DNA of 27,151 bases from a virus. Its lineage: Duplodnaviria > Caudoviricetes. The stretch covers positions 1 to 27,151 of the IMG/VR virus record IMGVR_UViG_3300020042_008659; one strand, written 5' to 3'. Every line of letters starts with the position of its first letter. Within the stretch, counting starts at the first letter, position 1. The translations under genes and the position numbers were made by a program. Below, one piece after another: positions 18,934-25,678 of this stretch. The notes beneath the pieces are model-generated. The model did not search any database, was not told where the DNA came from, and saw only the letters and a list, made by a program, of their open reading frames with translations.

Positions 18934-19541
18934 AAAAATTAATATTACTTTTTGTTTTGTTTTGTGGCACAATTTCGGGACAAACCACTTACAATGATGT
19001 TTCGAATTTAATAAATTCGAATTTAGCCTCTGGAATAAAAATACAGGCAAACAAGCATCGTGAAGTAGAGCATGCCTTGTTGAATTTTGCCAATCAAAAT
19101 AGTTCTCAGCAATTTGACATAAAAGCAATTTACGTAAATTCAACCTATTTAGGTGAAAATTTCGAAGCGAACGGATTAGGAAAAAATTTGCGTGCAGGCT
19201 GGGCGATTTGTAACGGAAATAATGGAACTCCAAACATGGGAGGACGTTCAATAGTAGCTTATGGTGGAGATTTTACCACCCTTAACGCTATTGGAGGTTC
19301 TAAAGACGCTATTTTGGTAGCTCACGATCATAAAGCGGTTTCGTCAGTTAATCCAAGTGGGGAATTTTCTTCTACAAATAAGCGTTTGGCAGCGTACAGA
19401 ATTAACGGAGGAAACACAGAATATGGCTTACAAGGCACAGCAACAGTGCCAAATACAGGAGTAACTACCGCAGAAGGTGAATCTGGAGCAAACAAAAACA
19501 TGCATCCGTACATTGTACTAGTATATATAATGAAATTATGA
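18930..19541 (+). CDS. tail-collar domain protein with N-terminal signal-peptide-like segment
   Basis: GWAICNGNNGTPNMGGR and NKNMHPYIVLVYIMK motifs; N-terminus MKKLILLFVLFCGTISGQ. Confidence 0.75.
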   Translation: MKKLILLFVLFCGTISGQTTYNDVSNLINSNLASGIKIQANKHREVEHALLNFANQNSSQQFDIKAIYVNSTYLGENFEANGLGKNLRAGWAICNGNNGTPNMGGRSIVAYGGDFTTLNAIGGSKDAILVAHDHKAVSSVNPSGEFSSTNKRLAAYRINGGNTEYGLQGTATVPNTGVTTAEGESGANKNMHPYIVLVYIMKL

Positions 19542-22489
19542 GTAACAGTTTAATAATAACAAAACAGCCAAGCGGAGTATTTTCGCTACAGTTAAACGGA
19601 GAAGATGTAGTTAGAAGTGAGCAAAACAGACTTACAATGGTAGGTAACTACTGCCATTTTAAAACCGCAAACGGGGCAAATGTAGTAAAAGAGCAGATGC
19701 TGCTGTTTTCAGAAATCACTTTGATTACAACTATCACGGAAACGTTCACAAGTATAGATCAGTTATGGCAAAGGCTTATTGATGTTGGTTTCTTTGGCAC
19801 TCTTGGCAGCGGTGGCGGTGGCGGAGGTGCTGATAAGTTTACCGAGCTAACCGATACTTTTCCTAGTTATCTAGGGCGTGACAATCAAGCATTAATCATA
19901 AACGAAAGCCAACAACGAATAGAGAGTGTGCCTTTTTATAATGTTCAGAACTTCACCCAGCTAGCAGACACTCCAAGTACGTTGTTGGCGAATAAAATGA
20001 TTACAACTAATGACAGCGGCACGGCTCTTGTCATGTCTGACATTCCTTCACTACCAGAGCCATCTTTAGCAAGTGTTGGTACATTCGATTATGCGGATTT
20101 AGCTACGCAAACAACACCTTTGTCGTTTGTAACTAATGTGCCAAAGAAACTAACAAACGACGGATTAGGAGCAACAAGCAACAGTGCCTTTCCTCCATAT
20201 GGCGTTACGTCGCTTTGGAATTCTATCGATAACTCTTGCGGCTTTTCTCAACTGAGCAATGGAGACGACACAGGCATAAGAATAGATATAACAGTGACTA
20301 CTACATCGGCAAACCAGATAGTGAGAGGTTATTTAAAGCTAGGCGTAGGCACGGCTTCTGAGTATGATTTACAATTTTTTTCTGAAAATATAAAGACAGC
20401 AGGAACAAATAACTTAACTTTTTTCACAAAAGTGTACATTGGCTCGGATGAAATCAGGAATGCACCTGCTGATTTCTATTTAGTCAGCGACGGCAATGGA
20501 AGTGTAAAAATAAACGGCTGGTACTTTTCAGTTACAAGAAGAAGCGTCAATATAGTTTCAGTAGAAAATTCAGGCACTACTTGGGGCAGTATAACGGGGA
20601 GTTTATCAAGCCAAACTGACTTACAAAGCTCACTAAACAGCATAGAAGACCTTGCTAAAAGCAAATTAAACGAGCTATATGAGATCAATGGCTATGTTGC
20701 TCAAAATGCACCGACGTCATTATCTAGCACTAGTTACGAGAGTTTTCCTCTGATGGTTAGAGGACAATCTAATAAGATATTTCTTTTTTATCGACAGGGT
20801 GCGGATCACGCTACGAGCAAAGGCGTAATTAGAATGCGCACTTCAAACGATGGTGGTGGCACGTGGTCGTCTGATGGCATCATTGCTTCTGACACTATCT
20901 ATGATTGCAGGAATGTAAGCGGTGGCGTTACTCCAACAGGTAGAATAGTGTTATTTTACATGCGCTACAATTTTACAGCATCTACTAGTTTCGACCAAGG
21001 TTTTATTTACTCGGACGATGACGGTAGCACATGGAGTAATTACCAAACCATACCAAGCGGCACGCATACTTTTTTTAGCCCATACGGAGAAATGATTTCT
21101 ATAGGAAATAATAAGCTAATGTTGTGCTGGTATGGTGAGACTCCAGCAACACCCACTTACAGCACTTACATAATAACATCTTCAGATAACGGCTTAACTT
21201 GGTCAAGTGCTATAGCCGTACTTACTTCAACATCACTAAGATATGGTGAGTCGTCATATGCTTACCTAGATGGTGGTATTATTGTTGGACACGTTAGAAA
21301 TTCGACGGGCAGTCCACTTTATCAGGTAATTTCAACTAATAACGGTGCGACATGGACAAATCAAGGAGTTACAACTGTTGATACCGCAGCGCAAGTTTCG
21401 CCAATGTTGGCAACATTTATAGATCCAAATAATCAGAAGTACATAGCCTCGTTCTACGCCAATAGAGGCGATAACAAGTTGAAGGTGTCAATAGCCGAAT
21501 ACGCTACAGCGGTAGCTGGTGTAAGTGGGTGGACAAGAACAGATATTGATAGTCATACATGGACTGATTTTGGTTACCCGACAGTAGTAAAAAGTAGAGA
21601 AAACAATAAGTTTCTGATTGCGTATTATAAAGCTGCATCGACCACTTTAGCGAGTATATATTTCAAGAATTATACTCCAAATTACGGGAGTATTGCCGTA
21701 ACTGGCACTATTTCCGCAAGTGGAAATATCAGTAGTTCCGCTAATGTATCAGCCGTTGCAGATATTTCTGGAAAGGATTTAAAAAGCTCGAATACATTGC
21801 AGATAAAAGGCGTAGTAACGGTTTTCCCAACTGCTGGAAACGGGCTAGAGGCTTACAATTCAACGGCTACCGCATCGATAATACAAGCGTATAACAGGAC
21901 AACATCTGTATTTAACGGCTTGAATTTTAGAGGCTCGATATTGCAATTCTTCATTGATGCCACTGAGGCGATGAGAATACACGCTTCAAGGGGTGTTAGT
22001 ATCGGAAATGCTACTGATTTAGGCGCAGGAACCTTAAATGTTGCGGGAAACATCACAACAATAGCGGGTACTACAGCAAATCATGCGGTGATTAAGTCGC
22101 AACTGGATGCGGTGGCTAGTTCAGCCACCAGTGCAAGCTACACACCTACGCTGACGGCTAATGGAAATATAACATCTTTAGCGTTGCAATCAGCTACATG
22201 GACGAAGATTGGCAATATAGTTACGTGTCAAATTATAGCGACAGGCTCATTAACAGCCTCTCCGGCAAACACCTCGTATATAGCCACTTTACCTTTTACC
22301 AGACTTGCAGCTTTAAAAACCGTCGGGGTTTCTAGCTTGATTGACAATAGCAGCACTCCTACTGGAAGCGGTATAGGAATTACGCAAGCAAACGCCACGC
22401 AAGCAATATTCAACGTAAACTATGGAGGCAGCACAACAGGCACAGGACGAACATTTATCATGAATTTTACTTACGATGTAACTCAATAA
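19538..22489 (+). CDS. tail fibre/receptor-binding protein with BNR/Asp-box (sialidase-like) propeller
   Basis: Four Asp-boxes SNDGGGTW, SDDDGSTW, SSDNGLTW, STNNGATW; poly-Gly hinge; WGSITGSLSSQTDL fibre motif. Confidence 0.8.
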   Translation: MSNSLIITKQPSGVFSLQLNGEDVVRSEQNRLTMVGNYCHFKTANGANVVKEQMLLFSEITLITTITETFTSIDQLWQRLIDVGFFGTLGSGGGGGGADKFTELTDTFPSYLGRDNQALIINESQQRIESVPFYNVQNFTQLADTPSTLLANKMITTNDSGTALVMSDIPSLPEPSLASVGTFDYADLATQTTPLSFVTNVPKKLTNDGLGATSNSAFPPYGVTSLWNSIDNSCGFSQLSNGDDTGIRIDITVTTTSANQIVRGYLKLGVGTASEYDLQFFSENIKTAGTNNLTFFTKVYIGSDEIRNAPADFYLVSDGNGSVKINGWYFSVTRRSVNIVSVENSGTTWGSITGSLSSQTDLQSSLNSIEDLAKSKLNELYEINGYVAQNAPTSLSSTSYESFPLMVRGQSNKIFLFYRQGADHATSKGVIRMRTSNDGGGTWSSDGIIASDTIYDCRNVSGGVTPTGRIVLFYMRYNFTASTSFDQGFIYSDDDGSTWSNYQTIPSGTHTFFSPYGEMISIGNNKLMLCWYGETPATPTYSTYIITSSDNGLTWSSAIAVLTSTSLRYGESSYAYLDGGIIVGHVRNSTGSPLYQVISTNNGATWTNQGVTTVDTAAQVSPMLATFIDPNNQKYIASFYANRGDNKLKVSIAEYATAVAGVSGWTRTDIDSHTWTDFGYPTVVKSRENNKFLIAYYKAASTTLASIYFKNYTPNYGSIAVTGTISASGNISSSANVSAVADISGKDLKSSNTLQIKGVVTVFPTAGNGLEAYNSTATASIIQAYNRTTSVFNGLNFRGSILQFFIDATEAMRIHASRGVSIGNATDLGAGTLNVAGNITTIAGTTANHAVIKSQLDAVASSATSASYTPTLTANGNITSLALQSATWTKIGNIVTCQIIATGSLTASPANTSYIATLPFTRLAALKTVGVSSLIDNSSTPTGSGIGITQANATQAIFNVNYGGSTTGTGRTFIMNFTYDVTQ

Positions 22490-23869: not shown

Positions 23870-24006
23870 AAACTAAAAAACCTTTTTTTGAAACAACAGT
23901 AGGCAAAATTTTAAAAATAGTAGCTAGTGCCGTTATAAGAAATCAAAAAGGCATTAAGAACACGCCTAATGCCACTAAAGTTGATAAGGTTATTGATAGT
24001 CTATAG
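23866..24006 (+). CDS. 46 aa cationic amphipathic peptide
   Basis: Read manually: MKTKKPFFETTVGKILKIVASAVIRNQKGIKNTPNATKVDKVIDSL; ATGA overlap with the endolysin stop. Confidence 0.6.
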   Translation: MKTKKPFFETTVGKILKIVASAVIRNQKGIKNTPNATKVDKVIDSL

Positions 24007-24223
24007 TTCCAATAAGCAAATCCCATTCAAAAAATTTTATCGCTTGGCTAATTGCTATTTCCTTGGTATTATAAAACCAAGGATTATTGCTCATTCCACT
24101 AACTGAAATTAAATGCGTCCAATATTTTCTTTTAAAAAATAAGACGCATTTTTCTTTTTGAATTTCAACTACCCAACCTTTCGGATATTCTTTTACTCTA
24201 ACTTTTAAGTTTTCTAAGTGCAT
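23990..24223 (-). CDS. hypothetical protein (77 aa, MHLENLKVRV...)
   Basis: Start moved to ATG 24223 with A-rich leader. Confidence 0.65.
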   Translation of the reverse strand: MHLENLKVRVKEYPKGWVVEIQKEKCVLFFKRKYWTHLISVSGMSNNPWFYNTKEIAISQAIKFFEWDLLIGTIDYQ

Positions 24224-24240
24224 AACTATTTTTTTTATAA

Positions 24241-24423
24241 TTAAAAAGGACATTCGTTTTTTGGTTTAGGAATCAAATCATTATAATCTCTTTTTATTTT
24301 TTCGGCTATTGCTTCTCTGATAAAATTACCAACATCAACGTTGTAAGATTTCATCTTCTGCAGCGTTTTTAGCTGTGTCTCAGAAATACGTATAACCTTT
24401 GTTTTTATTAGTAGTTTACTCAT
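24241..24423 (-). CDS. small ribbon-helix-helix-like DNA-binding protein (60 aa)
   Basis: TKVIRISETQLKTLQKM...VGNFIREAIAEKI fits the strand-helix-helix pattern. Confidence 0.6.
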   Translation of the reverse strand: MSKLLIKTKVIRISETQLKTLQKMKSYNVDVGNFIREAIAEKIKRDYNDLIPKPKNECPF

Positions 24424-24455
24424 TTTGTAATACATTTATAGCGAGTAGCCAGTAG

Positions 24456-24662
24456 TTAGGGAACAGCTTGTATAGGAACGTCCAAAAGACCTCGAAATTC
24501 AATATTTCCACAATTTGGACAACAATAATGACTTCCCCATCCGTCTTTATCTTTTTTTAGTTCTTGTTGTTCCAAAGTACCTTCCCATTTACATTTTTGT
24601 TTAGTGCATTGGTATGCTTTTGGCTTTTCACCCCATTTTGTAAATTTTCTTTTTTGTGCCAT
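24456..24662 (-). CDS. zinc-ribbon protein (68 aa), gene of cassette B
   Basis: CTKQKC...CCPNC; start at ATG 24662; stop lies within the core site. Confidence 0.7.
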   Translation of the reverse strand: MAQKRKFTKWGEKPKAYQCTKQKCKWEGTLEQQELKKDKDGWGSHYCCPNCGNIEFRGLLDVPIQAVP

Positions 24663-24686
24663 TTTGTTTGTCTTTAAAAAATCCGA

Positions 24687-24823
24687 TTCCCTAACAATGC
24701 ATAACACTAATTACGGCATCGGTATTGAATTTATAGTTTAGTTTTGTATCAGTGATACGGTTTTTAATCTGGATGTTTCGGCTTACTTATTCCGTAACTA
24801 GAGTTATGCTCAACATTATCACT
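24687..24823. repeat. attC-like imperfect palindrome (137 bp)
   Basis: TTCCCTAAC, arm 24699-24716, central GTATC-AGT-GATAC, arm 24792-24809 (16/18 complementary), ATTATCACT. Confidence 0.7.
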
Positions 24824-25025
24824 CAGATTGGGAAATGCTTACTGAATTGTAATGTATATTTTCAAGAAGTCTTATACATTCTTGATTAGAAAGAGCTATC
24901 TTTTCGATATAATCTCTTACAAATTCAATTTCTTCTTTATTTTCTAGTTTTTCTAAAATTTTACAAATAAGAAAGAAATCTTTTCCGCTACCTCTTTGAA
25001 TCCCTTTGTTTTTAAATTCGCTCAT
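24819..25025 (-). CDS. hypothetical protein (68 aa, MSEFKNKG...), gene of cassette A
   Basis: Start moved to ATG 25025; TGA TAA stops lie within the core site. Confidence 0.65.
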   Translation of the reverse strand: MSEFKNKGIQRGSGKDFFLICKILEKLENKEEIEFVRDYIEKIALSNQECIRLLENIHYNSVSISQSE

Positions 25026-25109
25026 AATTTTAGGTATTAAAAAGCCGAAGTGATAACAGCTACTACAACTAACTAGGGTATTTCGGCTTTGGTTATTGTT
25101 ATCTGAGTA

Positions 25110-25117
25110 CAAATATA
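25110..25117 (-). promoter_or_regulatory. -7 element TATATTTG driving the minus-strand island
   Basis: CAAATATA on the + strand upstream of all four minus-strand genes. Confidence 0.6.
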
Positions 25118-25192: not shown

Positions 25193-25200
25193 TATCTTTG
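25193..25200 (+). promoter_or_regulatory. -7 element TATCTTTG driving the early operon
   Basis: Consensus match 26 nt before ATG 25227. Confidence 0.65.
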
Positions 25201-25226
25201 GTAAAAATTTAAAACAAGAAAAAATT

Positions 25227-25376
25227 ATGAAAAGAAACTATTTCACTATTCATCAGAATAAGAAGCCGAAAAAAATAAAATATTCTAAAATTTATAGCAA
25301 AGAACAGCAGGAAAAAATAAGAAAATTAAACGAGTTTTTGAGATTAGAAATAGAAAAATTAAAACAAATATTATGA
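25227..25376 (+). CDS. small basic hypothetical protein (49 aa)
   Basis: Start moved to ATG 25227; ATGA overlap with the next gene. Confidence 0.55.
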   Translation: MKRNYFTIHQNKKPKKIKYSKIYSKEQQEKIRKLNEFLRLEIEKLKQIL

Positions 25377-25678
25377 AAAGAATTTTATTAACGTTGTTGA
25401 AACTAATCAACAACTACACAAACCACCAAATTACGGCTAAAGAAGAAGCTGGACAGATTTTAAAGTATATGCTGTTAAAGAGCGATACTAAAAGAGTGAT
25501 TGAAGTTTACAAAGAGCTAAACGAAGCTATCGAGCAAGAAATGGATAACCGAGCTTTTGAGGCTTTAAGAACCGCTAAGTTGATTCAAAGCGAGTGGGGG
25601 GTAAAGAGCACCGTTAAAGACCCTGCTTTTGATAAACCAATTAATAATATAAAAGTGGTTTATGAAAGAGTTAATTAA
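25373..25678 (+). CDS. hypothetical protein
   Basis: 101 aa ORF in a packed operon. Confidence 0.7.
   Translation: MKRILLTLLKLINNYTNHQITAKEEAGQILKYMLLKSDTKRVIEVYKELNEAIEQEMDNRAFEALRTAKLIQSEWGVKSTVKDPAFDKPINNIKVVYERVN

Follow-up and report, generated by a model that had tools for sequence, protein, structure and literature searches.

Integrons are recognized, in the account of Cury et al. (2016, PMC4889954), which also covers the 'inverted integrase' layout, by an integrase with an IntI-specific insertion and by RYYYAAC/GTTRRRY cores that surround an imperfect inverted repeat and are complementary within each cassette. The folded site measures about 55–140 bases and has extrahelical bases in the stem of the L box; the gene precedes attC, the promoter is close to attI, and insertion takes place at this fixed site beside the recombinase, between the G and the TT of the core, cassettes being duplicated and reordered.

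Clusters of attC sites are also described in phages. Qi et al. (2023, PMC9892861) reported 17 CALINs in 10,705 genomes, none of which, in the accessible part of that source, belongs to a Flavobacterium phage, and IntI1 gave no recombination at P12002L_attC1, a Polaribacter phage site that belongs to the family described here. The phage CALINs resemble the present array in that single genes are organized as cassettes with attC-like sites in phages devoid of an integrase, and the bottom strand listed there is, in the accessible entries, the gene-sense strand, in agreement with the polarity found here; in contrast to the present case, only 'divergent directions' are mentioned in P12002L, and the same part of the source names no insertion site, reversed genes or non-IntI recombinase. 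Another related system is rAID-1 of Bacteroidales, which combines a XerD-like recombinase and integron-like repeats; its close recombinase homologues are, in the available text of the report, restricted to Bacteroidales (Ross et al., 10.1101/471110). The available text identifies it by a 5' XerD-like recombinase more than 44% identical to BF9343_RS08045, and the system treated here was compared with it by description. Host arrays treated below share with rAID-1, as outlined in that text, at least two co-directional genes behind a recombinase with repeated intergenic motifs. In contrast, the window has no recombinase, and its two cassette genes, which have no family match over the cut-off, do not display the immunity cargo given in the available text, where rAID-1 is placed on Bacteroidales chromosomes with immunity genes and neither a hairpin structure nor a crossover nor a phage form is given. 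A literature search with most subscription papers outside its scope brought up no publication dealing with reversed cassettes, the half site or Flavobacterium arrays; the accessible parts of PMC8618304 and 10.1101/2024.07.02.601686 hold nothing on this cassette system, and PMC10392669 was set aside as concerning a different locus.

The window, that is the whole stretch of DNA analysed (27,151 bases), corresponds to the entire virus record IMGVR_UViG_3300020042_008659, which is about 71% complete according to CheckV. Its DNA matches among named phages comprise 14 records, 12 of them from Flavobacterium phages and the others from Polaribacter phages. The plus strand up to 24006 carries terminase, portal, capsid, tail and endolysin genes, the early gene block finishes with a RecT-like gene, and four small genes on the minus strand (23990–25025) lie between the late block and the early genes. 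A 983-aa protein (19538–22489) has repeated SxDxGxTW motifs, which we take to be Asp-box-like, the protein probably being a tail spike or a glycosidase. The minus-strand region is, in our judgement, quite probably a short, partly decayed integron-like cassette array of Flavobacterium-type phages, this estimate embracing both what comparison reveals and the mechanism proposed below. Comparison of loci reveals its unit, crossover, insertion site and polarity, as well as the sites shared with hosts and the recombinase linked to them.

The cassette array of the window

The first-pass annotation had described an integron-style cassette array with no integrase beside it, and all the units, ORFs, cores, stop codons, ATG spacings, arms, apex and promoter element that it listed are present in the sequence (Table 1). 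The array itself stands; the degenerate state of the window copy and the large chromosomal arrays of hosts had been missed. Gene annotation and protein search reveal no tyrosine recombinase anywhere in the record; since this is about 71% complete, a recombinase gene may lie in the missing portion of the phage.

Table 1. Features of the cassette array and its surroundings, in window coordinates
Feature	Position	Strand	Description
Terminator-like hairpin	23950–23973	−	Would end the array transcript ahead of the lysis genes
Fixed small gene behind the half site	24241–24435	−	64 aa (60 aa from ATG 24423); PHROG 25647
attI-like fixed half site	24435–24463	+	Before the small gene; unrelated DNA from the core on
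Predicted crossover	between G24455 and T24456		Between G and TT on the plus strand, between AA and C on the gene strand
Cassette B body	24455–24695 (241 bp)	−	Between paired cores GTTAGGGAA / TTCCCTAAC, 9/9 complementary
Cassette B gene	24456–24662	−	68 aa, two CxxxxC/CxxC motifs
attC-like site of cassette B	24687–24823 (137 bp)	top strand = +	Core, 3-nt spacer, arm, loop, arm, 5-nt spacer, core
18-nt arms of this hairpin	24699–24716 and 24792–24809		2 mismatches, paired without a bulge
Hairpin apex GTATC-AGT-GATAC	24746–24758		
Cassette A body	24815–25057 (243 bp)	−	Between cores ATTATCACT / AGTGATAAC, 8/9 complementary
Cassette A gene	24819–25025	−	68 aa, no family
One-arm remnant of the hairpin once belonging to cassette A	25058–25093	+	Likeness to the hairpin junction of locus L089
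Probable Bacteroidota-type −7 promoter element	25110–25117	−	TATATTTG; faces the array; read from sequence

The stop codons of the two cassette genes, TAA and TGA, lie inside the cores and the ATGs are 33 and 32 nt from the core G. The likeness that had been noticed between the two leaders is real and corresponds to the cassette end common to the whole family, not to something special to these two genes. Likewise, in the 137-bp stretch that had been called a palindrome the cores, arms and apex pair, and the remainder is unpaired, the element not being palindromic throughout. The product of cassette B is probably a zinc ribbon on the strength of its two cysteine motifs, and a Pfam-type profile search gave zinc-finger matches below the cut-off only; a relative of this protein at 56% is encoded in locus L116, a 74% identical relative of the cassette has other neighbours in L087, and a 263-base public contig is identical to 24455–24680 throughout and differs from the window at positions below 24455. 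The product of cassette A has no PHROG or Pfam match and no relative in viral contigs, and its atlas matches are all below 0.8.

The crossover core of the cassette B hairpin is ATT, while the same hairpin type has GTT in 17 of 19 copies, GAT in one and ATT in the window. The 66 bases at 25037–25102 are 79% identical to a stretch with a hairpin junction in L089, and no second full site is detected in the window by either the site detector or a covariance model, the remnant at 25058–25093 being without a significant fold. With ATT at the crossover, a single arm left of the cassette A hairpin and an intact half site, the window copy looks frozen.

The half site is the point at which the closest relative and two public contigs part from the window (24458–24461), and its first 13 letters (24435–24447) are identical, in the same register, to a host attI-like site (L161). 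The fixed small gene behind it has a weak match to DUF6290 (E 0.0024, below the cut-off), and its product is presumably a ribbon-helix-helix regulator. A TGTA-A-TACA palindrome (24426–24434) sits on the insertion site, before the start of the small gene, and is almost invariant in 73 loci; it may be a candidate operator of this gene, and if the small protein binds it, self-regulation or a control of access to the insertion site would be conceivable.

At the other end of the array, the promoter element was named on the basis of TAnnTTTG, which we take to be the −7 promoter consensus of Bacteroidota. A sigma-70 promoter scan, which looks for the wrong promoter type, did not cover 25110–25117 and found 5 promoters against 8.1 expected. 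The stretch from 25093 on is 94% conserved in the closest relative (L001), whose array differs. A second TAnnTTTG element, TATCTTTG (25193–25200, plus strand), faces the early genes. The segment 25093–25226, which is likewise 94% conserved in L001 and shares 44 bases with phage 11b, is probably a divergent promoter region. As for terminator-like hairpins, the scan found 3 against 0.4 expected. Farther on, a 17-base direct repeat (25220–25236 / 25366–25382) spans two successive start codons, and the 146 bases between its copies, equivalent to a 49-aa gene, are absent from two public contigs; read from these sequences, the loss is a repeat-mediated deletion, separate from the cassette system.

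Taken singly, the window hairpin is not more stably folded than shuffled sequences (DNA z −0.66 and −1.20), and the same holds for the two end regions. The window has 4 self-complementary 9-mer core pairs; 100 shuffled versions gave 1.1 on average and 4 at most. By themselves such pairs constitute modest evidence, and it is membership in a family that raises the feature above chance.

The site family and gene exchange in related phages

The first-pass annotation had suspected a distinct site family, a view strengthened by the missing Rfam match, by a consensus stem without bulges and by a recombinase under the integron-integrase cut-off. In particular, an Rfam covariance search of the window gave no match up to E 1, and six related loci gave two matches far under the gathering score. 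The arm 18-mer matched 24 viral stretches, in most of which the element recurs with unchanged limits between unrelated flanks; L100 and L103 were chance matches and L085 a duplicate, and all three were dropped before sites were counted. An exact scan of 185,579 genomes for the 18-mer yielded 10 stretches, nine of them seen as 18-mer matches and one with both arms in L115 (G001:C63), a 9.2-kb contig of a Flavobacterium bin with 10 detected sites in phage-type polarity, which is probably a phage contig.

A self-written detector that looks for AAC, spacer, stem, spacer and GTT was applied to 105 loci, not de-duplicated (80 related loci, 21 of the 24 18-mer loci, L105, L115, L116 and the window), and found 222 sites, with up to 10 in relatives of the window; in the first 40 loci there were 73 sites in the real sequences against 3 after shuffling. 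The 219 complete sites form 136 sequence types at 72% identity. In an alignment of 69 long sites, 91.3% of the cells are paired, compared with 59.0% when shuffled and at most 43.6% when slid, and stem covariation is 0.758 against 0.179 and at most 0.154, respectively; all 15 stem pairs are changed on both sides. These sites had been selected for having a stem, and the figures therefore indicate that pairing is kept while the sequence varies, not that the stems are unexpected. AAC and GTT are paired in 69 of 69 aligned sites, in one of them, that of the window, by a G-T pair. The six variable core letters all match in 82 of 124 cases within the cassette and in 5 of 219 across the hairpin. The consensus stem has 1x1 mismatches and no bulged bases, and 2–4 extra letters in one spacer may serve in their place; in fact, the spacers are unequal (1/5, 3/5, 3/7), and the long one follows the stop codon in 206 of 209 oriented phage sites. 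The covariance model of this family, built with the window site among its members, recovers that one full site in the window. Several phage genes begin within the hairpin loop and run through arm and core (L001, L087, L093, L179).

The half site stands before the small gene in 73 of the 80 related loci, and the DNA is unrelated from AAC on. L001 matches the window at 92.5% identity as far as 24461 and at 93.9% from 25093 onward, and between these positions it carries 2.8 kb of different genes; a contig of run X3, with the same 2.8-kb filling length, was not counted as independent. In a further public contig another filling starts at 24458, and a joint 24477–24677 in run X7, with 22 letters on one side, was left out of the evidence. 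The public runs were compared as contigs; none of them covered as much as half of the stretch searched, and no RNA run was listed. The alignment across related phages that had been proposed as a check thus gives flanks that are kept, a gene content (24455–25093) that is replaced and breaks at the core, and the idea of a gene-capture or shuffling platform with self-complementary cores and attC-like hairpins is borne out by gene swaps at the cores in relatives.

The cultured F. psychrophilum phages show how cassettes are rearranged. FPSV-D35 (L105) has cassettes with the ends of both window cassettes and different genes inside, and corresponds to FPSV-D15 with a single additional unit, made of hairpin and gene, at the half site; 6H has two copies of a 378-base unit, one of them at the half site; and blocks common to these phages and to three related IMG/VR records occur in different orders at nearly 100% identity. 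Among the loci compared, where cassettes at least 99.8% identical have different neighbours, the upstream hairpin is kept and the downstream one changed (L012/L013/L014; L006/L009). Some cassettes of L105 (6125–6430, 7252–7850) hold two small genes behind their own A+T-rich leader and resemble regulator pairs with a promoter. Fifty distinct junctions, counted pairwise and not independent events, were collected from the phage or prophage arrays of 6H, 23T, 2A, FPSV-D15, FPSV-D35 and three related IMG/VR records: 41 coincide with the AAC that follows a stop codon, 9 lie elsewhere, mostly inside hairpins or at unsequenced gaps, and the GTT preceding a start codon accounts for none. The letters shared at junctions are 3–6 only (TAAC), and unrelated hairpins are joined.

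By these comparisons the mobile unit is a hairpin with its downstream gene, which is added, duplicated and reordered with breaks at the AAC after the stop. Because the junctions lie at AAC and units are added or duplicated at the half site, the crossover is placed between AA and C on the gene strand (G and TT on the plus strand of the window), and the half site is taken as the insertion site. The first-pass annotation had implied a classical layout, with the hairpin behind the gene and insertion beside the promoter; instead, the hairpin travels before the gene, and insertion occurs at the promoter-distal end, at a half site that had been overlooked.

Gene swaps could also be produced by homologous recombination between conserved boundaries, promoted by a phage RecT-like protein, the hairpins being regulatory or carriers of start codons. 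The window does have a RecT-like gene, some genes start inside a hairpin, and some junctions (9 of the 50 phage junctions and several host ones) are within hairpins; however, a homology of 3–6 letters joining unrelated hairpins, core pairing that tracks the cassette and a dedicated tyrosine recombinase at the head of host arrays and of some phage arrays make this explanation very improbable.

Host arrays and their recombinase

A search of hosts with a covariance model, another proposed check, found sites in 89 of 101 Flavobacterium genomes. The four host arrays that were fetched have 23–36 sites each, and three of them, together with contig L149, follow a co-oriented tyrosine recombinase of 345–347 residues. 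In host arrays the short spacer comes after the stop codon, which is the classical orientation, in 95 of 103 oriented sites. A counterpart of the attI-like site lies about 90–250 bases behind the recombinase, and the GTT core downstream of the enzyme pairs with the core of the first hairpin in 4 of 4 cases. In 20 further loci picked for the recombinase alone, a site is present in 14, with 23 sites in sense, none in antisense and 5 undecided, two opposite-strand calls falling in the attI-like stretch; the core pairing is found in 9 of 20. In the other six loci no site was found in the fetched stretch, four of these being cut by contig ends at 2.2–4.2 kb. One genome (G035:C1) has two long arrays with common cassettes, at about 2.31 Mb and at 3.74–3.77 Mb, one cassette recurring several times, and within the fetched stretch the recombinase is beside only one of them.

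Duplicated cassettes in hosts begin and end at GTT on the strand with the short spacer first (G035, G090), which is the same physical crossover as in phages, and several host junctions fall inside hairpins. Moreover, the trinucleotides flanking the cores follow the same strand in hosts and phages (after the core AAT, CAG or AAG; before it ACT or CGA), those of the window being CAG and CGA, twice. This agreement implies that the shell is shared and that the gene alone is turned; by comparison, the plus strand of the window has the anatomy of a host array (attI-like site, GTT with its crossover after the G, cassette, AAC, hairpin) with every gene antisense.

The array recombinase is present in 84 of 201 Flavobacterium genomes (E 1e-100). 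The host enzymes, of 346 residues, score 202–213 bits on TIGR02249, whose cut-off is 265, and match it in two pieces; aligned with IntI, they are without the insertion that is present there. Their nearest solved structures are XerA/XerC-like proteins (E 1.5e-40 and 6.3e-39), and IntI4 is found at E 5.1e-34. The IntI insertion binds bulged bases. Classical IntI was rejected as the enzyme, being over the cut-off in one of 301 Flavobacterium genomes; this sole case (L123, G228:C174) is on a 1.5-kb contig, is 30% identical to the array recombinase and may be a binning contaminant.

The enzyme could be imagined to act in the fashion of Xer, within the same system and at the same crossover, on double-stranded core-spacer-box sites whose arms are binding sites or form a cruciform, with no single strand involved. 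The XerA/XerC-like relatives placed ahead of IntI4, the missing insertion and the stem without bulged bases are in keeping with such an activity, which nevertheless appears unlikely: the arm sequences vary freely while all 15 stem pairs stay complementary, which suggests that structure and not sequence is read, and cassettes are duplicated within one array (6H; G035, G090), as replicative single-strand recombination would yield.

Phages can also harbor the enzyme. The phage-borne relatives have 263–287 residues and are 35–40% identical to the host enzyme; in Leef_1, Freya_10, Ingeline_1 and two IMG/VR records the gene lies directly behind an AAC core, and in the enzyme-bearing phages it occupies the place of the small gene of the window. 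Reversed sites precede the phage enzyme in Leef_1 (four) and in Freya_10 (one), the detector found no site before the recombinase of Ingeline_1, and both IMG/VR records carry reversed arrays, one of which holds the hairpin type of the window. Freya isolates differ in length, and these differences were not traced to cassette changes. A word-based search of viral contigs confirmed no copy of the host recombinase; relatives at 35–40% escape this method and were later found otherwise. The tyrosine recombinase of L093 (25% identical to the host enzyme) and a 400-aa integrase of FPSV-D35 (31% over 140 aa) were excluded from the array family by identity. A tyrosine recombinase is encoded in 3 of 10 related records; none is encoded in the 36.6-kb record of L001, which CheckV rates as 100% complete. 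For the window phage, supply of the recombinase in trans, as the first-pass annotation had supposed, is the likeliest possibility because neither the window nor its complete closest relative encodes one; enzymes that could act in this way were found in hosts and in some phages.

These data also bear on the possibility that the array is an ordinary integron CALIN, made of host cassettes passively captured by the phage and processed by a classical IntI. Phage CALINs are indeed published, including sites of Polaribacter phage P12002L that our detector also finds (PMC9892861). This origin is largely refuted and hardly to be expected: the single IntI among 301 Flavobacterium genomes, on its 1.5-kb contig, is unlike the array recombinases, the arrays are actively reordered in phages, and the genes are reversed in phages (206 of 209) and not in hosts (95 of 103), which excludes captured host cassettes.

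Proposed mechanism and meaning for Flavobacterium and its phages

For the integron-like array favored here, we infer a folded single-stranded substrate, catalysis by the array enzyme, its supply in trans and a transcription route across the cassettes. By analogy with integrons, with the gene-sense strand as the 'bottom' strand, the hairpin would form on a single strand, and a dedicated Xer-like tyrosine recombinase would join this folded strand to the double-stranded half site; the cassette would thereby be copied as well as moved. The enzyme acting on the window phage would be the 346-residue recombinase of the host or the 263–287-residue relative of a co-infecting phage. The phage genes would be read from the far-end promoter toward the insertion site, with transcription probably starting from 25110–25117, crossing the two cassettes as well as the small gene and ending at the 23950–23973 terminator. 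The two resident cassettes may now be largely locked in, and the half site would still be able to accept new ones.

Compared with integrons (PMC4889954), the family has RYYYAAC/GTTRRRY cores around an imperfect inverted repeat, with ATT in the window copy, and these are complementary within the cassette (82 of 124 in the family; 9/9 and 8/9 in the window). GTT/AAC pairing cassette by cassette, a folded site of about 55–140 bases and cassette duplication and reordering are further common traits, as is, judging from the comparison of loci, a fixed attI-like site, beside the recombinase in hosts, with a crossover between G and TT. In contrast, the stems of the window and of the consensus have no extrahelical bases, the spacers are lopsided, and the IntI-specific insertion is absent from the host recombinases and has no counterpart in the window. 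The order with the gene before attC and the promoter near attI is found in hosts and not in phages, where genes are antisense and new cassettes are farthest from the promoter. The system works like an integron and is not an integron by the defining test of the integrase.

A broader reading, which we put forward tentatively, is that Bacteroidota and their phages share an equivalent of the integron, in which a Xer-like recombinase without the IntI insertion acts on folded single strands and phages fill the same shells with reversed genes. The notion of a ready shell is based on core-neighbor letters that follow site polarity in hosts and phages and on identical shells that carry unrelated genes; if true, cassettes would be made by placing a gene, in either direction, in such a shell, and the genesis of cassettes would be testable in cultured phages.

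Integron surveys keyed on IntI and standard attC models miss the recombinase (84 of 201) and the sites (89 of 101) of Flavobacterium genomes. The hypervariable region of cultured fish-pathogen phages would be explained by site-specific shuffling, in which phages use the gene-capture chemistry of the host with the genes turned round. The system thus offers material for two questions, namely whether folded strands can be recombined without the IntI insertion and how a gene enters a cassette.
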